Source: Acidimicrobiia bacterium (GTDB taxonomy: Bacteria; Actinomycetota; Acidimicrobiia; Spongiisociales; ZC4RG35). Taken from it: DNA of 28,436 nt. The DNA is taken from assembly GCA_035463935.1 (NCBI GenBank), contig DATHSX010000176.1:1-28436 (forward strand), given 5' to 3'. Under the pieces are notes generated by a model. It saw nothing but the letters and a program-made list of their open reading frames with translations, did no database searches and had not been told where the DNA came from. Positions 9,186 to 18,478 of the stretch are shown piece after piece. The position numbers were made by a program, and so were the translations under genes. How positions within the stretch are numbered: the first letter of the stretch is position 1; each line of letters starts with the position of its first letter.

Positions 9186-9231
9186 ATCGTGTCCGGGAGG
9201 CTGCGAACGGCCCAGGGCCGATGGTCCCACC
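9186..9231 (-). promoter_or_regulatory. Candidate DosR/DevR-like box (GGTGGGACCATCGGCCCTGG, 9231-9212) with a possible -10 (CACGAT, 9191-9186)
   Basis: Core GGGAC-N4-GNCCC matches the mycobacterial DevR box. It is centred about 42 nt upstream of the start site implied by the weak -10, in front of the tpl-hydrogenase unit. Confidence 0.5.
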
Positions 9232-9236
9232 GGCTC

Positions 9237-9251
9237 TGATCGAACCGATCA
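9237..9251. promoter_or_regulatory. Perfect inverted repeat TGATCG-AAC-CGATCA, possible operator
   Basis: 6-3-6 palindrome in the tpl upstream region, about 22 bp from the DosR-like box. Confidence 0.3.
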
Positions 9252-9319
9252 TCGCTTCGGGAGGTGATCAAAGGCGACAACCACACCGCCGCCGGTGCCG
9301 CCGGGCGGCCCGGGCCGAA

Positions 9320-9362
9320 CCCCCTCGGTCGGCTCCGCGCAACAGCCCAACCGATCGGGGGG
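9320..9362 (-). terminator. GC-rich hairpin after the 127-aa ORF, possible intrinsic terminator
   Basis: Imperfect stem of about 13 bp (CCCCCTCGGTCGG / CCGATCGGGGGG) starting 9 nt after the stop at 9371. No clear U-tract. Confidence 0.35.
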
Positions 9363-9370
9363 ATTCTCGA

Positions 9371-9754
9371 CTAATCGGTGCTGGGCACCGCCCGGGGCGC
9401 CGGCGCTCGCGAAGGGGTGTGGTCGCTCACCGAGCGATGCAGCCGGAACGTCTCCTCGGCCGAGCGGGATTCATCCACAAAGGAAAGGTACTGCCTCGCC
9501 AGTTCGGTGAACTCCCCCCCGGTGCTGGTGGCGGCGTCGCGGAAGTTGAAGCTGAGAGGATGACCGTAGCGCCAGATCTGATGGAAATCACCGCCTCTGC
9601 CGCCGGGAGCCCAAACGGGGGTGTAGGTCCCGAGGTATTCGTAGTTCGGCGGAGCGGCCCGCGCCAGGTCATCCTCGTGGTCCGCCAGCCACCTCCGGAA
9701 CTCATCCTCTTTGCCCGGTTCGACGAAGAATCCCCATTCGTAGATAAGCGCCAC
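9371..9754 (-). CDS. Hypothetical protein (127 aa), possibly a dimeric alpha+beta barrel
   Basis: Strong RBS AAGGAGG 5' of the GTG. Pattern F.V.PGKEDEFRRW...YLGTY....W resembles ABM/NIPSNAP-like barrels. Last gene after the Mo-enzyme. Confidence 0.7.
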   Translation of the reverse strand: MALIYEWGFFVEPGKEDEFRRWLADHEDDLARAAPPNYEYLGTYTPVWAPGGRGGDFHQIWRYGHPLSFNFRDAATSTGGEFTELARQYLSFVDESRSAEETFRLHRSVSDHTPSRAPAPRAVPSTD

Positions 9755-9801
9755 TGCTCCTCCTTGCCGCCCACCCTACCCAGCTAGCGAGCCCGTGCCG
9801 C

Positions 9802-12660
9802 TTAGCCGGGCAGGGCGTAAACCGGGCGAGCGGGCTTCAGCGGGCGCAGCAACCAGTAGGGCCTTCTGGTGCCGTCGGGGGAGATGCGGTCGGCGGCCCT
9901 CGTCAAGTCCAGCCAGCGCAGGTAAGCCTCTCTGGCGCGGGCGGTGTCGACGACGACGTCGCCATATTGGTCGCCTGGCTCGGCCTTGCGCACCCGCACC
10001 GCCTGGTGCCAGCAGTGCTGGCCGGAAATAGGATCGGGCTGCACCGGAAAGGTCAGGTTCTGGTGGACCCCTGACTCCGACCACCAGATCCGTTGGGTGT
10101 CGGGATCGGTCGACTCATAGGGCTCGATCCCCTGCTTGCGGCTCAGGCTCCACTCGGACCCGGAGTGGCCGAGGGCGACCGTGGCCATCGCCTGTCGCTG
10201 CCCTTGATCCTGGAGTTTCCAGCGTCCCATGTGGTGGGAGCACGCCACCACCCCCGGTCGGATGCCCTCGGTTACCCAGGCCTTGACCACGTAGTGACCG
10301 ATCTCGGTCACCACCCGCACCAGGTCGCCGGTGGAAAGGCCGAGCCGGGCCGCGTCGGTCGTGTGAATCCAGAGCGGGTTGGTGTGGGCAATCTCATCTA
10401 GCCATTTGGAATTGGCCGACCGAGTGTGAATCTGCACCGGTAGTCGAAAGGTGGAGATGAGCGGCATCTGTCCCTCCTCGAGGTTCGAGGGGTGAATGTG
10501 GCTGCGGATGTAGCCGGGAAGCGAGTGCTCGGGCCATCCCCAGTTGGTCAGGGTGGACGAGTAGAACTCCAGCTTGCCGCTCGGAGTCGGAAAGCCACGG
10601 AGGACCTTTCCGTCGATCCGCACCCCCACCGGGCGCCTCCCCTGGTCATCGGGGTCGGGGCTCGACAACGGCACAACATTGGCTTGTTCGGCGGCCGGAC
10701 CCCGGCTGTAGACCCGTCCAAACCGATCCTCGGCCACATCCACCAACTCCGCCTCCGGCACCTCCTGTTCGTGCCGGGGGCCGATACCTCTGGCTATCTC
10801 GAAGGCGCCGTAACGACGCATGTACTCGAGCGGGCTCAGACCTTCGGCACCGGCGTGTTCGGGAAGGCCCGGAACCGAGTGCTCAAACATCCAGCCGTAG
10901 TACTCGTCCACTGTCAGCTTGCGACCGGGGTCTTGCCTCGACTCGTGGTATCGCCTGATGCCGAGGCTCCCGTCGGGATCGATCCTCCAGGACAACTCGA
11001 TCCAGAATTCGTTCTCCTCCCACACCTGGCCCGGATTGGACTCTCTGGTGTCGGTGATCGCCATCCCCAACCGGCTGGCCGCCGCCCGCGCCACGGGCTG
11101 ACGGAAACCCACCCACTGCCCGTCGTACTGCTCGTAGGAGTGCACGTCGTGCCTTTCGGGCGAGTGACCCATGGGGAGGATGTAGTCGGCGAAAAAGGCC
11201 GTCTCCGACCAGGTAGGGGTGAGGGCAACATGAAGACCGATCTTGTCCTCATCGGTGAGCATCTCGATCCAGGAGAAGCCGTCCGGGTTGGTCCACACCG
11301 GGTTGTAGACCCGAGTGAAATAGACCTCGATGTTGCCCCGTCCCTCGTTCACGAACTGCGGCAGCAGAAAGGACAACTCGTGCATCGCCAGCGGATACTC
11401 GAGGGGCCAGGTGAGTTCGTTCCATACCGGCGGATGGGGAGGGCTGTGGATGGGTCGGGGCACGAACTTGTTCCAGGCGTTGGGGTACGTGCCGCCGGGG
11501 GTCGCCACCGCCCCCAGGAGGGCGTTGATCAGGAACAAGCTGCGCGATACCTGCCAGCCCCCCAGATTCCCGGCCGCGGCTGAGCGCCAGTTGTGGGACG
11601 AGAAACGGGTTCCGGCGCCGGCCACCAACCCGGCGACTTCCCGGAGGGTCGAGACCGCAACCCCCGACTCGGCCGAGGCAAACTCGAAGGTGTAGTCGCG
11701 GTAGAGCTCACTGAGAACCTCCTCGAAACTTTCGAAGGTGGAGCCCCGCTCGGGATGTTCTGCTGCCAGGTACGACTCCCAGTTCCACCAGCGCCGGACG
11801 AATTCGCGGTTGTAGGCCCCGGTCTGGATGACGTGATTGGCGATGGCCAGATTGATCGCGGCCTCTGATCCCGGATAGGGCGAAAGCCAGTGGTCGGCAT
11901 GGGTGGCGGTATTGGACAACCTCGTGTCGAGGACAATCAGCTTCGCTCCCCGGGCCTTGGCTTCAGTGATCCGCTGGGCGTGGGGGTTGAAATAGTGCCC
12001 GGCCTCGAGGTGGGCCGAGATCAGGTATATCACCTCGGCGTTGGCGTGGTCCGGGCTGGGGCGGTCGATCCCCATCCACAACTGGTACCCCACCCGGGCC
12101 GCCGAGGAGCAGACATTGGTGTGCGAGTTGTGGCCATCGACACCCCAAGAGGCCAGGACCCGCTCGGTGAAACCGTCCTCCCCGGGCCTGCCCACGTGGT
12201 ACATGACCTGGTTCGGTCTCCCCTCGACGATGGCGCTTCGCACCCGGGCAGCGACTTCGGTGAGGGCCTCTTCCCAGGAGACCGGTACCCATCGCCCTTC
12301 GCCCCGGCGACCGGCCCGTTTGAGTGGCTGCAGTATCCGGTCGGGATCGGTGATCTGGTTGAGGGTGGCCGGGCCTTTGGCGCAGTTGCGACCGCGTGAG
12401 CCGGGATGCTCCGGATTTCCCTCCAGCTTGCGGATCTGCAGGGTTTCGGGATCCACATAGGCCAGCAGCCCACAGGCGGACTCGCAGTTGAAGCAGGTGG
12501 TAGGGACCAGCATCGACCGGCGTTCGACCCGCTCCGGCCAGGCCCGGGAGTCCAATTCGGTCCACTCGTCCCATCGTTCCTTCGGCGGGTAAGAGGCCAG
12601 GTGGATGCCGCTGGGGCCCTGGTAGAAGGTCTCGTCAGGACGAGCGGGGTCGTCTGTCAT
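9802..12660 (-). CDS. Mo/W-bisPGD (DMSO reductase family) catalytic subunit, PsrA/PhsA-like, no Tat signal
   Basis: 4Fe-4S motif TCFNCESAC...NCAKG, RILQPLKR, HNSHTNVCSS (candidate Cys ligand), HFNPH, FADYILP, TPSGKLEF, HTRSAN, C-terminal QAVRVRKA. 952 aa from the ATG at 12660 (ATGA overlap); the ORF-track start at 13455 is an extension. Confidence 0.92.
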   Translation of the reverse strand: MTDDPARPDETFYQGPSGIHLASYPPKERWDEWTELDSRAWPERVERRSMLVPTTCFNCESACGLLAYVDPETLQIRKLEGNPEHPGSRGRNCAKGPATLNQITDPDRILQPLKRAGRRGEGRWVPVSWEEALTEVAARVRSAIVEGRPNQVMYHVGRPGEDGFTERVLASWGVDGHNSHTNVCSSAARVGYQLWMGIDRPSPDHANAEVIYLISAHLEAGHYFNPHAQRITEAKARGAKLIVLDTRLSNTATHADHWLSPYPGSEAAINLAIANHVIQTGAYNREFVRRWWNWESYLAAEHPERGSTFESFEEVLSELYRDYTFEFASAESGVAVSTLREVAGLVAGAGTRFSSHNWRSAAAGNLGGWQVSRSLFLINALLGAVATPGGTYPNAWNKFVPRPIHSPPHPPVWNELTWPLEYPLAMHELSFLLPQFVNEGRGNIEVYFTRVYNPVWTNPDGFSWIEMLTDEDKIGLHVALTPTWSETAFFADYILPMGHSPERHDVHSYEQYDGQWVGFRQPVARAAASRLGMAITDTRESNPGQVWEENEFWIELSWRIDPDGSLGIRRYHESRQDPGRKLTVDEYYGWMFEHSVPGLPEHAGAEGLSPLEYMRRYGAFEIARGIGPRHEQEVPEAELVDVAEDRFGRVYSRGPAAEQANVVPLSSPDPDDQGRRPVGVRIDGKVLRGFPTPSGKLEFYSSTLTNWGWPEHSLPGYIRSHIHPSNLEEGQMPLISTFRLPVQIHTRSANSKWLDEIAHTNPLWIHTTDAARLGLSTGDLVRVVTEIGHYVVKAWVTEGIRPGVVACSHHMGRWKLQDQGQRQAMATVALGHSGSEWSLSRKQGIEPYESTDPDTQRIWWSESGVHQNLTFPVQPDPISGQHCWHQAVRVRKAEPGDQYGDVVVDTARAREAYLRWLDLTRAADRISPDGTRRPYWLLRPLKPARPVYALPG

Positions 12661-14213
12661 GCCAGTGGTACGGCCTGCGCCGATTGGATGTATGCGTGCT
12701 CGTAAGCCAGCAGCCCGGCCAGAGCCGGTAGCGCCGCCCAGGCCCCGGCCCAGGGGCCGGCCAGCCCGAAGGCCGAGAGGATGACACCCGGCCAGAAGGA
12801 CGAGCTGTAGCGGCCGGTGGTCATCTCCCACACCGCCAGATGGGCGTGGGCGGTCCCGTGGGGCAGGGTGACCTCGCCCCAAACCAGGAGGAGGTGGACC
12901 AGCGAAGCCAGGGCCAGCGTCCAGCCCAGGGCCGGACCGGCCTCGTTGCCGGTGAGGGCGTCGGCCACGACCAGGGTGGCGGCGCCGGCCAGCACCGCCT
13001 GCATCGCCATGTGGGGCGGAAGCAGCGGACTCTGCCAGAGATCCCTGGCCTTGGATTGGGCGAACAGATAGGCGGTGTACACCGCCGACATCAGGGCAAG
13101 AGGGATGCCGGGCACCGCCGCCAGTTGGCGCAAGGTCTCCGATCCGGTCCAGGCGGAGAGCAGGTGCGCGACCAGCACGCCACCGTAGCCGAGGATGAAC
13201 ATCGCCCCCTTCACCAGCCAGCTCCTCCACTGCGGTCGGGTGAATAGATAGAAGAAGCGCTCGGGATGATCGAGGTCCCAGACCAGGACCGCCCCCGTGA
13301 CACCGAGGAAACCCAAGCCGACCAGGGGGGTGACCCAGACCACCAGGTCGCTGGTCCAATCGAGTAACCCGGTGAGCACCAGCAGCAGCCCAACCAGATA
13401 GACACCGGCACCAATTGCCTTGGCCCAGGTGTAGAGGCCGACCCGCCAGTCCCACGGCGCCTTATGGGGAATGTCATAAGAGAGAAGGGCCGCCGCCGAG
13501 GAGTTGGAGCGGCCCCCGGGATGGCCGGACCGAATCCCCGCACCCTGCTCGCTCCACATGTAAAGGTCGCCGCCAGGACGGGTAGCTGCAATGGGATCGA
13601 GAGTCGCCTGATGGGCTCCCTGGTAGAAGAGCTTGGGATAGGTCTCCTTCTCGGGACGCCTCACCGTCACCGGCTGGCGTTGCACGATCCCTGCCACTCG
13701 CGAGAACGGATCGGACAGATCGCCCACCAGAATCGCCTCGGTGGGGCATACCACCACGCAGGCTGGTTCCAGCCCGATGTCGAGCCGGTGGGCGCAGAAG
13801 TTGCACTTCTCGGCGGAATGATCCTCCGGGTTGATGAAGATGGCATCGTACGGACAGGCCGCGATGCACGCCTTGCAGCCGATGCAGATCCGCTTGTCGA
13901 AATCGACGATCCCGTCTGCGCGCCGATACATCGCGGCTGTGGGGCAGGCGGCCACACAGGGCGGGTTGGCACACTGATTGCACCTCGTCACCTGGAAAGC
14001 CCGACGGGCCTGGGGGAAGTAACCAACGTCGACCGACTTGACGTAGGTGCGGGTCACCCCGACCGGAACCTGGTTCTCCGACTTACAGGCGGTGGTGCAG
14101 GCGTGACACCCGATGCAGCGGGTCTGATCGATGACCTTCACCCATTCCGGCGGTCTGAGCGGGGCAAACGCCGCCGGGGCCGCTTCGAATTGGGAGGTGC
14201 CAGCGACCTCCAT
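12657..14213 (-). CDS. Fusion of a four-cluster ferredoxin (PsrB/NrfC/DmsB-like) to an NrfD/PsrC-type membrane anchor
   Basis: N-terminal half: CIGCHACTTAC, CNQCANPPCVAACP, CIGCKACIAACPY, KCNFC...PACVVVCP. C-terminal half: about 8 TM helices with WDLDHPERF and SWLVKG (NrfD motifs). Confidence 0.9.
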   Translation of the reverse strand: MEVAGTSQFEAAPAAFAPLRPPEWVKVIDQTRCIGCHACTTACKSENQVPVGVTRTYVKSVDVGYFPQARRAFQVTRCNQCANPPCVAACPTAAMYRRADGIVDFDKRICIGCKACIAACPYDAIFINPEDHSAEKCNFCAHRLDIGLEPACVVVCPTEAILVGDLSDPFSRVAGIVQRQPVTVRRPEKETYPKLFYQGAHQATLDPIAATRPGGDLYMWSEQGAGIRSGHPGGRSNSSAAALLSYDIPHKAPWDWRVGLYTWAKAIGAGVYLVGLLLVLTGLLDWTSDLVVWVTPLVGLGFLGVTGAVLVWDLDHPERFFYLFTRPQWRSWLVKGAMFILGYGGVLVAHLLSAWTGSETLRQLAAVPGIPLALMSAVYTAYLFAQSKARDLWQSPLLPPHMAMQAVLAGAATLVVADALTGNEAGPALGWTLALASLVHLLLVWGEVTLPHGTAHAHLAVWEMTTGRYSSSFWPGVILSAFGLAGPWAGAWAALPALAGLLAYEHAYIQSAQAVPLA

Positions 14214-14216
14214 CAA

Positions 14217-14441
14217 CTAGACCTTCTGAATGCGGAAGTGGAACTCGCCATCCTGTTCAAACTGCTCCTTCAGCACGTGGCCCATGTCCGCGGTCCACGC
14301 GGGTACGTCGGTGCACGACCCGCGATCGGTGGAAATCAACTCCACCATAAGTCCCGAAGGGGCGAGGTTGATGGCTTGGCTCAACTTGATGATTGGCATG
14401 GGGCATTGCAGGCCCCGGGCGTCGACGATTACGTCCGCCAT
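14217..14441 (-). CDS. TusA/SirA-family sulfur carrier
   Basis: VDARGLQCPMPII (CPxP motif), STDRGSCTDVPAW. 74 aa, GAGGAGG RBS. Confidence 0.92.
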   Translation of the reverse strand: MADVIVDARGLQCPMPIIKLSQAINLAPSGLMVELISTDRGSCTDVPAWTADMGHVLKEQFEQDGEFHFRIQKV

Positions 14442-14452
14442 GGGCAACCTCC

Positions 14453-14989
14453 TCAGATGAACAAGTTGATCGACGACTGCTTCATCAGGCTGATGGCGGC
14501 CCCCGCCCCGGCCGGCTTGTCAAGGCCATCGATCATATCTTGTGCCTCCATTCCCATCAGGGTCATGGTCATCTGGCAGGGCCAGAGCTTGACGCCCATC
14601 TGCTGGGCGAGTTCGAGCAGCTCCTGAACCGAGGCGACCTTGTGTTTGTCGGCCAGGTCTTTCATCATCCGGGGCCCCATCCCCGCGAAGTTCAGTTTGG
14701 AGAGGTTTAGGTGCTCGGTAGTGCCGCGGTTGAAGATCGAGAGCAGCTTCTGGCGCCAGTCGTCTCCAGTGATGCCCGCGTCGGGCTTCTTGAGGATGCC
14801 GAGACCCCAGAAGGTGAAGAACACGGTCACCTCCATCCCGTATGCCGCCCCGGTGGTGGCCAGGATCAACACCGGCCAGGCCTTGTCGAGGTCACCAGAA
14901 GCGGCGATGATCACCATCTTCTCCCGCTCGGGCTGAGTCTCTTCGACTGCACTCTCGTCCGGGACTGCTGCGAGATTCGTTCTTGTCAC
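14453..14989 (-). CDS. DsrE/DsrF-like (DsrE2/YrkE-type) sulfur-transfer protein
   Basis: SGDLDKAW..LILA..AA..GMEVTVFFTFWGL, LNFAGMG..MM, VKLWPCQMTM.LMG, terminal LFI. AGGAGG RBS. Confidence 0.9.
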   Translation of the reverse strand: MTRTNLAAVPDESAVEETQPEREKMVIIAASGDLDKAWPVLILATTGAAYGMEVTVFFTFWGLGILKKPDAGITGDDWRQKLLSIFNRGTTEHLNLSKLNFAGMGPRMMKDLADKHKVASVQELLELAQQMGVKLWPCQMTMTLMGMEAQDMIDGLDKPAGAGAAISLMKQSSINLFI

Positions 14990-15015: not shown

Positions 15016-15041
15016 ACTATATACAGATATTCGTATATACT
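15016..15041. promoter_or_regulatory. AT-rich palindrome TATATAC-N8-GTATATA (15018-15039) overlapping divergent -10 hexamers
   Basis: 7-bp perfect arms in an AT-rich patch within GC-rich DNA. Minus-strand TATAGT (15021-15016) lies about 27 nt before the dsrE start; plus-strand TATACT at 15036-15041. Confidence 0.6.
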
Positions 15042-15188
15042 AATCTCTTCGTCAAAGTGGGCGCAGGTGCCCTCGATGCGATCGATAGAGCAGCGACCGT
15101 CCGGCCCCATCCCTGGCTGCGGCCAGGACTGGGGCGGCGGCTGATCGTGAGCTGGGCGCTCTCGGCGCGACCGGAGGAAGGAGGGGCC

Positions 15189-16544
15189 GTGGAGGTAAGA
15201 CTGCTTCGAACCCCCGGGCTCGGTGACAACAGCTATGTGCTGGCCGAGGACGGGCTGGGCATCGTGATTGATCCCCAGCGCGACATCGACCGGTTCATGA
15301 CCGAGGCCGAGGCCCTGGAGGTGGAGGTCAGGTATGTCCTCGAGACCCACCTCCACAACGACTACCTTTCGGGAGGTCGTGAGCTAGCCCGCCTCACCGG
15401 GGCCGACCTGGTCCTCCCAGCCGGCGCCGGGGCGGCCTTTGCTTACGTTCCCGCCTTCCACCTCGAAGAGTTCGGCGAGGGACGGCTCCGCATCCGACCC
15501 CTGCATACTCCGGGCCACACCCCCGAACACACCTCGTATCTCGTGAGCATCGACGGCGTCCCCATTGCCGTCTTTTCCGGTGGCAGCCTGCTCGTGGGTG
15601 CGGCGGGAAGGAGCGACCTGCTGGGTCCCGACCGAGCGACCCAGTTGGCGCGACTTCAATACGGATCTGTGCGTCGTCTGGCGGATCTCCCCGATCGGGT
15701 TTCCCTTTATCCGACCCATGGGGCAGGCTCGTTTTGCAGCGCCGGACTGGCCGGCCCCGCGACCTCCACCATCGGAGACGAAAAACGGACCAGCCCGGTG
15801 CTCCGGCACCTCGACGCCGACCAATTCGTCGCCGCCCAGCTGGCAAGCCTCGATCCCTATCCCCGGTACTACGCCCATATGGGGCCAGCCAACCTCTTCG
15901 GTCCGACCCCCATGCCCTCCGGGACCGCTCCAAGCCTGAGCGCAGATGACGTCGAGTCGCTGGTAGGCCGGGTCGAGATAGTCGATGCCCGGCCCAAGCA
16001 GGCGTACGCCGACGGGCATCTCCCGAAGGCCTGGGGCATCGAGCTCAACGAAGACTTCGTCACCTGGGTGGGCTGGCTGCTCCCCTACGACGCGCCTCTG
16101 GTGTTGGTGGTGGACAACGATCAAGACGTCGGCCAGGCAGTCACCGCACTCGCCCGAATCGGATTCGACCATGTGAAAGGGGTCTTCTCCGGTATGGACG
16201 AATGGCTCGCGTCGGGTCGGCCAGTCGTCTCCCACACCACGATCACGGCCCGTGGCTTCCTGGAGGGCGCCGATCCCGACCCCCAGGTACTGGACGTCCG
16301 CTCAGCCCGCGAATGGAGTGACGGCCATCTCGAAGGATCCGTGCACTGCTACCTGCCCGACCTCCTGGATGCAACTCCGATCGAACTCGACCCGGGACGT
16401 CCGGTCTACGTGGGCTGCACCACCGGGCACCGGGCCTCTACTGCTGCCGGCCTCCTTGCCGGTAGGGGCTACCGGCCCGTCGTTATGGTGGGTGCCAGCC
16501 TCCTGGGAGTCCTCATGCTTCGCCAGCAGCGAGCCACTGTGTGA
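15189..16544 (+). CDS. MBL-fold hydrolase plus tandem rhodanese domains (persulfide dioxygenase/CstB/YrkH-like)
   Basis: GDNSY, IDPQRD, ETHLHNDYLSG, HTPGHTPEH, FSGGSLLVGAAGRSDL, YPTHGAGSFC. A Cys-less rhodanese domain is followed by one with GCTTGHRAS (active Cys). GTG at 15189 after a GGAGG RBS. Confidence 0.9.
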   Translation: MEVRLLRTPGLGDNSYVLAEDGLGIVIDPQRDIDRFMTEAEALEVEVRYVLETHLHNDYLSGGRELARLTGADLVLPAGAGAAFAYVPAFHLEEFGEGRLRIRPLHTPGHTPEHTSYLVSIDGVPIAVFSGGSLLVGAAGRSDLLGPDRATQLARLQYGSVRRLADLPDRVSLYPTHGAGSFCSAGLAGPATSTIGDEKRTSPVLRHLDADQFVAAQLASLDPYPRYYAHMGPANLFGPTPMPSGTAPSLSADDVESLVGRVEIVDARPKQAYADGHLPKAWGIELNEDFVTWVGWLLPYDAPLVLVVDNDQDVGQAVTALARIGFDHVKGVFSGMDEWLASGRPVVSHTTITARGFLEGADPDPQVLDVRSAREWSDGHLEGSVHCYLPDLLDATPIELDPGRPVYVGCTTGHRASTAAGLLAGRGYRPVVMVGASLLGVLMLRQQRATV

Positions 16545-17293: not shown

Positions 17294-17626
17294 TCACCCG
17301 AGATCGAGGGCGTCGCGCAGGACGGTGACCCGCTCGGGGACCACCCGGAACCATGCCCACTTCCCCCGCTGCTCGCGGGTGAGGAGCCCGGCGCCGGCAA
17401 GAATCGACAGATGGTGACTCACCGTAGGCTGACTCCGCTCCAACGGCCCTACCAGGTCGCATGCACACATCTCGCCCTCCGGTGCGTTGGCGATCAGGCT
17501 CAGCAACCGCAGTCGGACCGGATCGGCCAGCACCTTGAAAGCGTCGGCGAGATCCTCGGCCTCGGGGATCCCCAGGGACCCTGTCAGCACCGGCTCACAA
17601 CAGGCCTGAATCAGCTTGACGTCCAC
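17294..17626 (-). CDS. arsR: ArsR/SmtB family As(III)-responsive repressor
   Basis: N-terminal ACCEP, FKVLADPVRLRLL, EMCACDL (alpha3 CxC site), RSQPTVSHHL, REQRGKWAWF. Divergent from arsM. Confidence 0.9.
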   Translation of the reverse strand: MDVKLIQACCEPVLTGSLGIPEAEDLADAFKVLADPVRLRLLSLIANAPEGEMCACDLVGPLERSQPTVSHHLSILAGAGLLTREQRGKWAWFRVVPERVTVLRDALDLG

Positions 17627-17632
17627 GACGCG

Positions 17633-17712
17633 ATTCTAGCCTCATTTCGATAGCCATCGATGTATTGACATCGGTCGATTCGACCAGTAAATTCGCATCG
17701 AAGCTCATCGAT
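17633..17712. promoter_or_regulatory. arsR/arsM divergent promoter region with candidate ArsR operators
   Basis: arsM promoter TTGACA(17665)-N17-TAAATT(17688). arsR -10 TAGAAT (17638-17633) sits 6 nt before the GTG, which suggests a leaderless mRNA. Related 15-mers TCGATAGCCATCGAT (17647) and TCGAAGCTCATCGAT (17698), plus ATCGATGT-N4-ACATCGGT over the -35. Confidence 0.7.
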
Positions 17713-17725
17713 ACAAGGAGAGGTC

Positions 17726-18478
17726 ATGTCCACCGAGAGTATCGCCCTTCGCGAGGAGGTACGGCGCCGCTACGCCATCAGCGCCGTCGGGCCAGACGCC
17801 GGATGTTGCGGATCCGACAGCAATTGTGGTCCGAGCGAACGGGATCTCACCGGGGGCCTGTACACATCCGGTGAGTTGGAGGGGATCCCAGCGTCGGCGG
17901 CCAACGCCAGCCTCGGATGCGGCAACCCCACCGCTCTAGCCGAGTTGAAAGAAGGCGAGACCGTGCTTGACCTAGGGTCGGGCGGGGGAATCGACGTCCT
18001 GCTCTCGGCCCGTCGGGTCGGAACCGGGGGATTCGCCTACGGGCTCGACATGACCGATGAGATGCTCGACCTGGCTCGGCGCAACGCCGCCGAGGCCGGT
18101 GCCACCAACGTCGAGTTCCTCAAGGGGTACATCGAAGACATCCCTCTCGACGACGAATCGGTCGACGTGGTCATCTCCAACTGCGTTATCAACCTTTCCG
18201 CCGACAAAGCGGCGGTCTTCGCTCAGATCCACCGCGTGCTCCGACCTGGGGGCCGGATCGGGATCAGCGACATCGTGGCCGATGACTCCCTCTCCCCGGA
18301 CGAACGAGCCGAGAGAGGAAGCTGGGTCGGCTGCATCGCCGGGGCGCTCTCAGTGACCGAGTACCGCCGGGGCCTGGCGGAAGCCGGGTTCACGGATATC
18401 TCCCTAACGCCCACCCACGCCGTGGCCGACGGCCTCGACTCGATGATCATCCGGGCGGTCAAGCCAGGCCAGGGGTGA
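17726..18478 (+). CDS. arsM: Arsenite S-adenosylmethionine methyltransferase
   Basis: SLGCGNP, VLDLGSGGGID, GLDMTDEML, VISNCVINL, WVGCIAGA (conserved Cys set). AAGGAG RBS. Confidence 0.93.
   Translation: MSTESIALREEVRRRYAISAVGPDAGCCGSDSNCGPSERDLTGGLYTSGELEGIPASAANASLGCGNPTALAELKEGETVLDLGSGGGIDVLLSARRVGTGGFAYGLDMTDEMLDLARRNAAEAGATNVEFLKGYIEDIPLDDESVDVVISNCVINLSADKAAVFAQIHRVLRPGGRIGISDIVADDSLSPDERAERGSWVGCIAGALSVTEYRRGLAEAGFTDISLTPTHAVADGLDSMIIRAVKPGQG

Follow-up and report, generated by a model that had tools for sequence, protein, structure and literature searches.

A molybdoenzyme without a Tat signal and its fused ferredoxin-NrfD partner: probable cytoplasmic orientation and a proposed role in sulfite oxidation

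On which side of the membrane does a molybdoenzyme work, and on which substrate, when it resembles the exported polysulfide and arsenate reductases but has no export signal? The question is raised by two adjacent genes at positions 9,802 to 14,213 of a 28,436-nucleotide stretch from an Acidimicrobiia bacterium (assembly GCA_035463935.1, contig DATHSX010000176.1; this whole stretch is called the window below). One gene encodes a catalytic subunit (A) without a twin-arginine translocation (Tat) signal, and the other a fusion of an iron-sulfur subunit and a membrane anchor (B-C), which in PsrABC are separate chains. The complex very probably faces the cytoplasm. The reaction that best fits its surroundings is the oxidation of sulfite, a reading that we weigh below against a reductase and against substrates other than sulfur compounds.

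Orientation of the complex in the membrane

The argument on orientation draws on the following parts of the two proteins:

9802-12660, minus strand: catalytic molybdenum bis(pyranopterin guanine dinucleotide) (Mo-bisPGD) subunit A, 952 amino acids, without Tat signal (Pfam Molybdop_Fe4S4, Molybdopterin, Molydop_binding)
12496-12660, minus strand: N-terminal extension of A, residues 1-55, with YPPKERWDEW (from the translation)
12382-12495, minus strand: FS0 [4Fe-4S] motif of A, C56-x2-C59-x3-C63-x29-C93 (read from the translation)
12109-12111, minus strand: Cys184 of A, presumed Mo ligand, in an SHTNVC motif (HMMER alignment to the ligand Cys of ArrA and PsrA)
12657-14213, minus strand: fused four-cluster ferredoxin-NrfD subunit B-C, 518 amino acids (Pfam Fer4_11 and NrfD, both above cut-off)
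13614-14150, minus strand: ferredoxin (PsrB-like) domain, residues 22-200 of B-C, with 16 Cys (match to PsrB, 2vpw_B)
12660-13460, minus strand: NrfD/PsrC-like anchor domain, residues 252-518 of B-C, N-terminus predicted inside (AlphaFold2, Foldseek, count of Lys and Arg)

Subunit A contains the domains PF04879, PF00384 and PF01568, each above its Pfam cut-off, and the four cysteines of the FS0 motif (C56, C59, C63 and C93) are invariant in both catalytic-subunit alignments (A1 and A2). Its closest solved relatives are ArrA (6cz7) and PsrA (2vpw), both with E about 1e-35, and Cys184 aligns with the ligand cysteine of each, which bears out the assignment of the HTNVC cysteine to the Psr/Phs/Arr branch in the initial annotation. 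That annotation had also reported that A has no Tat signal and that an extension precedes the Fe-S motif, and both statements hold. The charged N-terminus has neither an S/T-R-R-x-F-L motif nor a hydrophobic stretch (the maximum hydropathy over 19 residues is 1.1), no transmembrane segment is found in A, and about 55 residues, including YPPKERWDEW, stand before C56. However, the extension does not take the place of a Tat signal, as had been proposed: Tat-bearing relatives (P0128, P0144 and P0168) have a motif of the YPPKERWDEW type too, located behind their signal peptide.

The description of the partner as a four-cluster ferredoxin fused to an NrfD domain of about eight transmembrane helices likewise stands. 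The ferredoxin domain matches PsrB (2vpw_B) with an E-value of 9e-50 and 43% identity, and its 16 cysteines, enough for four [4Fe-4S] clusters, are invariant across 30 homologues; its best NCBIfam match is TtrB, under the cut-off of that model. AlphaFold2 places eight transmembrane helices at residues 256-514 with a predicted local distance difference test (pLDDT) score above 90, preceded by a linker of about 50 residues that is modelled as disordered. A Foldseek search with the B-C model matched 2vpw_B, 2vpw_C (template modelling score 0.70) and ActC. A PDB sequence search with the anchor domain alone found no match; only the fold search succeeded. The B-C/A layout is not due to chance, because B-C is a single reading frame in 91 of 92 genome loci and in all 69 metagenome loci that include the upstream DNA (160 of 161 together).

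Among the A frames of the family, in about 100 genome or plasmid loci and 79 metagenome loci, none combines a Tat consensus with a hydrophobic region, whereas a clear Tat motif is present in 13 of 13 Tat-bearing comparison proteins. The signal covaries with the arrangement of the other two subunits: the four closest Tat-bearing relatives (P0128/L002, also found as L127; P0144/L005; L122; L123) all encode B and C in separate genes. A metagenome scan for a Tat-bearing sister clade returned 79 Tat-less family members and the query's own contig only. We applied the positive-inside rule to an alignment of the anchors, comparing Lys plus Arg in the N-terminal flank and the loops on the same side with those in the loops on the opposite side. 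In 87 fused proteins the N-terminal side carries 11.6 of these residues on average (minimum 8) against 2.0 (maximum 5) on the other side, and the anchor from the window has 10 against 1; in the separate anchors of the four Tat-bearing relatives, the counts are 6 against 9, 6 against 15, 3 against 10, and 9 against 10. The homologous anchor domain has opposite charge polarity in the fused and the separate groups.

In PsrC, as described in a passage of PMC8076601, both termini are periplasmic, and this is where PsrB docks. For the fused protein we strongly infer that B stays on the N-terminal side of the anchor and that this side is now the cytoplasmic one. Because the missing Tat signals, the B-C fusion and the charge bias agree, we consider it very probable, from these sequence comparisons, that the complex faces the cytoplasm. 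The proposal in the initial annotation that the whole module is turned inward is strengthened by finding A to be Tat-less throughout the family, together with the covarying fusion and the reversed charge bias.

Gene neighbourhood and the proposed reaction

For the substrate we turned to the gene neighbourhoods of the relatives. Every plausible open reading frame around the enzyme in 159 loci was clustered without prior choice, and same-strand partners were counted:

TorD/NarJ-type chaperone: 68 of 159 loci
persulfide dioxygenase-rhodanese: 42 of 159 loci
SulP sulfate permease with STAS domain: 30 of 159 loci, on the same strand and downstream of A in 28 of the 30
DsrE2: 20 of 159 loci
DUF445: 20 of 159 loci
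TusA: 18 of 159 loci

Persulfide dioxygenases yield sulfite in the cytoplasm, and the presence of a SulP permease agrees with sulfate as a product formed there. One SulP gene of this kind lies at L167:8715-10283; the window has none. The window does contain several of the other partners, located upstream of the two enzyme genes:

14217-14447, minus strand: TusA sulfur carrier, 76 amino acids, CPMP motif (Pfam TusA, E 2.8e-21)
14453-14989, minus strand: DsrE2-like protein, first gene of the operon (Pfam DrsE_2, E 1.4e-47)
15018-15039, no strand: palindrome TATATAC-N8-GTATATA in the divergent promoter region, candidate operator (7-nucleotide arms, 100% complementary)
15057-16544, plus strand: metallo-beta-lactamase-fold (persulfide dioxygenase-like)-rhodanese fusion (Pfam Lactamase_B and Rhodanese)
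17294-17626, minus strand: ArsR/SmtB-type regulator, a candidate persulfide sensor by its inferred role (Pfam HTH_5)

The minus-strand genes for DsrE2, TusA, B-C and A form one tightly coupled operon, since the gap between DsrE2 and TusA is 5 nucleotides, that between TusA and B-C is 3, and the start ATG of A overlaps the stop of B-C as ATGA. Divergent from this operon stands the metallo-beta-lactamase-rhodanese gene, which has the architecture of persulfide dioxygenase-rhodanese fusions and is followed by two DUF202 genes and, further out, by the ArsR-type regulator. The annotated GTG start of the fusion gene lies about 45 residues ahead of its domain (15057-15190) and only 18 bases from the palindrome, and translation probably begins further downstream. 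The regulator is divergently paired with a gene for a 250-residue S-adenosylmethionine (SAM)-dependent methyltransferase (Methyltransf_31; 17294-18478 for the pair).

The regulators that adjoin the enzyme differ in type between loci: ArsR in the window, L001 and Rhodococcus jostii RHA1, CsoR in Thermomicrobium roseum, and sigma-54 in L004. All three regulator families include persulfide sensors. In the protein itself, R158, H180, T181 and R189 around Cys184 are conserved and align with positions of ArrA that we take to be oxyanion-binding. Because the neighbours, the regulator families and these conserved residues point the same way when taken together, we regard sulfite:menaquinone oxidoreductase as the best reading of the enzyme, with a probability of about 0.55; substrate and direction are read only from the gene neighbourhood.

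If this were the case, the two polypeptides would form a membrane-anchored iron-sulfur molybdoenzyme with its catalytic side in the cytoplasm. The linker of about 50 residues would join the ferredoxin domain to an eight-helix, quinone-binding anchor of the NrfD type, at the cytoplasmic N-terminus of this anchor, which would be inverted relative to PsrC. Subunit A, with its Cys184 ligand and FS0, would fold and remain in the cytoplasm and dock on the ferredoxin domain. Sulfite would be oxidised to sulfate at the Mo centre, and five Fe-S clusters would carry the electrons to menaquinone, bound close to the cytoplasmic face. The sulfite may be supplied by the neighbouring persulfide dioxygenase-rhodanese, which in turn would receive its sulfane sulfur from DsrE2 and TusA. 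In a regulon for persulfide and sulfide detoxification, probably under the control of the ArsR-type regulator, the enzyme would then catalyse the final step.

Several observations weigh against this picture. In more than half of the loci no sulfur gene lies close to the enzyme, which makes the signal from the neighbourhood a partial one, and the clade has no biochemically characterised member. The NCBIfam matches of A are all far below their cut-offs: PhsA scores 188 against 694, ArrA 114 against 1600 and TtrA 104 against 1750, and DmsA and QrcB fall far short as well. The identity to a SoeA-type protein from Burkholderia (L126) is 23%, and function is therefore not transferable by orthology. 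The genome of the host also contains five SUOX-fold matches, which are possible sulfite handlers. As for the architecture, the charge contrast rests on four separate anchors, one of them neutral, and the AlphaFold2 model has low confidence for the B domain and the linker and is silent on docking.

The main rival to sulfite oxidation is a reductase that also faces the cytoplasm, in which menaquinol would reduce polysulfide, an organic persulfide or one bound to TusA or DsrE2, thiosulfate, or tetrathionate to sulfide. We judge this rival unlikely, though it accounts for a good part of the evidence. PhsA, PsrA and ArrA are the best relatives of A by hidden Markov model (HMM) or structure, the B domain matches TtrB best, and the Tat-bearing relatives have their genes in the same order, B-C-A; moreover, DsrE2 and TusA share the operon with the enzyme in the window and in R. 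jostii RHA1. However, across the loci counted, DsrE2 and TusA are found in only 20 and 18 cases, whereas the oxygen-dependent persulfide dioxygenase (42) and SulP (30) are commoner and fit an oxidative route to sulfate. The carrier-bound persulfide that the initial annotation had suggested as substrate finds no specific support in the same comparison. The hosts belong mostly to lineages that are generally taken to be aerobic soil or marine bacteria, and the reduction of thiosulfate or polysulfide by menaquinol is unfavourable without a membrane potential.

A second alternative keeps the complex in place and replaces the substrate by an oxyanion without sulfur, such as arsenite or arsenate, or selenate, the sulfur genes standing nearby for regulatory reasons only. 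The conserved residues at the positions taken to be oxyanion-binding in ArrA would suit such a substrate, and so would the ArsR-type regulator and the SAM methyltransferase close to the operon in the window. We nevertheless consider this explanation improbable: the neighbours counted in the 159 loci include no recurrent ars, arr or selenium genes, the ArrA score of 114 is far from the 1600 demanded by the model, and ArsR-family regulators, as noted above, include sensors of persulfide.

Leader, chaperone and history of the family

The commonest neighbour in the count, the TorD/NarJ-type chaperone, is linked to a feature of A that is absent from the window. Most A proteins of the family are extended at the N-terminus by a leader of about 25 residues with the pattern ...(R)RVSAARxExEARGE..., with an RR pair in about a quarter of the leaders and a hydrophobic region in none. 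Among the loci L009-L088 and L128-L206, leader and TorD-like gene occur together in 98 and are both missing in 27; the leader alone is found in 17 and the chaperone alone in 2, these two being misses of the leader pattern, and the counts are not corrected for relatedness. This suggests that the leader may be a retained, vestigial tail that binds the chaperone, by analogy to NarG with NarJ. That the soluble parts are exported by an unrecognised route despite their missing signals, with the complex in the classical Psr orientation, is highly improbable: a TorD-like chaperone, typical of Tat substrates, does follow the genes in many relatives and the RR pair is partly kept, but nothing hydrophobic follows that pair, the ferredoxin is covalently tied in 87 of 87 proteins to a helix with Lys/Arg-rich flanks and same-side loops, and NarG, served by NarJ, is a precedent for a chaperone of this kind retained by an enzyme of the cytoplasm.

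The A protein of the window belongs to the minority that has neither leader nor chaperone gene. No cognate chaperone is found in its own genome, which is 87% complete; the sole TorD-like gene there adjoins another Fe-S subunit on a different contig. The lack of leader and chaperone matches the empty stretch downstream of A, where about 570 bases (9231-9801) separate the end of A from a tyrosine phenol-lyase gene, and where the only open reading frame is one of 127 amino acids on the minus strand (9371-9754), with a coding-like GC content at third codon positions and no Pfam match. Beyond this stretch lies a tyrosine phenol-lyase-hydrogenase unit. A functional tie between this unit and the enzyme was rejected, since the adjacency is absent from the related loci examined.

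The initial annotation had suspected a distinct clade, and the tree together with the HMM and structure matches supports one within the Psr/Phs/Arr part of the DMSO reductase superfamily. In a quick search over 32 catalytic subunits, a tree with some long branches and without an established root, the Tat-less A proteins with fused partners form one clade together with three Tat-bearing proteins that have the YPPxxxW motif (support of 100 in the Shimodaira-Hasegawa-like approximate likelihood ratio test, SH-aLRT; long stem). The next clade consists of Tat-bearing Psr-like proteins exclusively. PhsA of E. coli and the Tat-less A-B-C enzyme from Burkholderia (L126) fall outside the family clade, and the Tat-less L004 is not resolved against a Tat-bearing member. 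The narG HMM score for A is negligible, and no SoeA model is among the NCBIfam matches. Export was likely, though not provably, lost rather than gained in the history of the family.

The enzyme of the window is an ordinary member of a large, unusually uniform and widespread family. A database search with A gave at least 8000 scored candidates, the best 120 of which have 74-88% identity, and the family was present in at least 556 species when one genome per species was scanned, with 67-77% identity for the best 80. The hosts belong to Actinomycetota, Chloroflexota, Acidobacteriota, Gemmatimonadota, Dormiibacterota, Binatia, Myxococcota and Planctomycetota, and include Ferrimicrobium acidiphilum and a Mycobacterium isolate. 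Cultured hosts with complete records include the following, listed here with their layouts:

Thermomicrobium roseum: A identity 62%; CsoR-type regulator, B-C, A
Rhodococcus jostii RHA1, plasmid pRHL3: A identity 56%; layout as in the window plus an Mrp/NBP35 gene
haloarchaea (Natrinema, Halomarina, Halomicrococcus): A identity 50-55%; B-C, A, Mrp/NBP35 (Natrinema halophilum, the one examined)

The Mrp/NBP35 Fe-S carrier gene follows A in R. jostii RHA1 (L120:10832-12001) and Natrinema (L121:10915-12075), in the usual place of the TorD-like gene. In Pyrinomonadaceae and other Acidobacteriota (L012-L027, L056, L060, L074 and L075), 0.6-3.3 kb of extra genes are located between B-C and A; those of L017 encode a GNAT acetyltransferase, a DinB_2 protein and two proteins of unknown family. 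In seven genomes (G256, G213, G086, G170, G204, G181 and G260) the match to A is interrupted near residue 820 and picks up again after about 55-100 bases. This break in the C-terminal domain, a split or an insertion, is a recurring one. One locus, L064 of genome G001, is labelled Gammaproteobacteria. Its phylum-level group has the family in 81 of 301 sampled genomes at about 58-76% identity, and no SoeA-type match was found in these 301 genomes; the label is probably wrong.

We tentatively consider, at somewhat less than even odds, that the cytoplasmic orientation arose here separately from that of SoeABC. A Tat-exported, Psr/Ttr-like ancestor with the order B-C-A would have lost its signal, reversed the charge of its anchor and fused B to the N-terminus of that anchor, while many members kept the TorD chaperone and a vestigial leader. 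Under this scenario, non-proteobacterial aerobes (Actinomycetota, Acidobacteriota, Gemmatimonadota, Chloroflexota and haloarchaea) would have in this family their main sulfite:menaquinone oxidoreductase of the cytoplasm, and an independent flip, if true, would be a natural and datable case of a whole respiratory complex turned across the membrane.

Although hundreds of soil and marine bacterial species, as well as haloarchaea, carry the family, it has neither a name nor a curated model. If its members are sulfite:quinone oxidoreductases, they would close the route from sulfide through persulfide and sulfite to sulfate in lineages without a recognised cytoplasmic sulfite oxidiser, and annotations such as "anaerobic selenocysteine-containing dehydrogenase" and "formate dehydrogenase" would have to be corrected. 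The Tat-less fused proteins and their Tat-bearing unfused relatives offer a clean comparative system for an inverted module of the NrfD type, and R. jostii RHA1 (genes RHA1_RS43835 and RHA1_RS43840 on pRHL3) and T. roseum are cultured and tractable hosts.

Comparison with known systems

The PsrABC complex of Thermus thermophilus (2vpw-2vpz) and ArrAB of Shewanella sp. ANA-3 (6cz7) share the cysteine ligand and the set of Fe-S clusters with the enzyme of the window. However, both are Tat-exported, face the periplasm and have B and C as separate chains. Compared with PsrA, A of the window is about 190 residues longer, and the charge bias of its anchor is opposite. The absence of a twin-arginine signal separates A from PsrABC, PhsABC, TtrABC and ArrAB alike, as do the cut-offs of PhsA, TtrA and ArrA, none of which is reached.

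The closest relatives outside the family, at 33-48% identity, are the Tat-dependent B-C-A-TorD operons P0128/L002, P0144/L005, L122 (Azoarcus sp. KH32C, pAZKH) and L123 (Sulfurovum mangrovi). Like the family, they have the order B-C-A and an SHTN(V/I)C motif, and YPPxxxW is present in three; they differ in their canonical Tat signal, in their separate B and C, and in an anchor whose charge bias is reversed or neutral. On the S. mangrovi plasmid (L123:6007-9175), the Tat-type A homologue is split into two overlapping frames and is unannotated; it is probably a pseudogene or the result of a sequencing error.

NarGHI with NarJ offers a parallel of another kind, as a cytoplasm-facing molybdoenzyme served by a chaperone of the TorD/NarJ family. 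NarG keeps a vestigial N-terminal leader. Unlike the enzyme of the window, NarGHI belongs to another branch of the superfamily, with an Asp ligand and with the haem-b anchor NarI in place of NrfD.

An inward-facing molybdoenzyme with an NrfD-type anchor is not a new idea: in the passage of PMC8076601 that treats SoeABC (Allochromatium vinosum, Aquifex aeolicus; Dahl 2013 and Boughanemi 2020 as cited there), the soluble subunits are already proposed to be cytoplasmic and the anchor inverted. Like the system of the window, SoeABC is a Mo-bisPGD enzyme of the membrane that pairs a four-cluster ferredoxin with an anchor of the NrfD type, and the oxidation of cytoplasmic sulfite is the role proposed for both; as in SoeABC, neither A nor B of the window has a Tat signal. 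The two differ in that SoeABC is encoded by three genes in the order A-B-C, whereas the window has a B-C fusion that precedes A. As a stand-in for SoeA we used the Tat-less A-B-C operon of Burkholderia (L126; 978, 248 and 315 amino acids), which is of the SoeA type and does not bear that name. Its A protein, the one with 23% identity to A of the window, has its FS0 motif, CYMCACRCG, within 20 residues of the start and no YPPxxxW extension. By this comparison of sequences, the family would work like SoeABC and is probably not orthologous to it.

The nearest published description of the architecture in the window is that of PSRLC3 (polysulfide-reductase-like complex 3) of green sulfur bacteria, which has a PsrB-PsrC fusion and is not known to carry a Tat signal. 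In passages of three papers, which cite Frigaard & Bryant 2008 and Gregersen et al. 2011, PSRLC3 is called "an alternative sulfite-oxidizing system" (PMC6338057), is said to be encoded by two genes (PMC5473276) and is "inferred to be sulfite oxidase" (PMC9324843). The system of the window consists of two genes as well, a likeness drawn by description and not by sequence; no Chlorobi protein is among the matches listed from the searches with A or with the divergent member P0124. The two systems differ in their setting, the host here being an actinobacterium of aerobic type with no Dsr system seen within the window. To these known systems, the present analysis adds that Tat signal and fusion covary, that the charge bias of the anchor is inverted and that the family is placed among Tat-bearing relatives; it also adds an unbiased count of neighbours that includes SulP, and the link between leader and chaperone.

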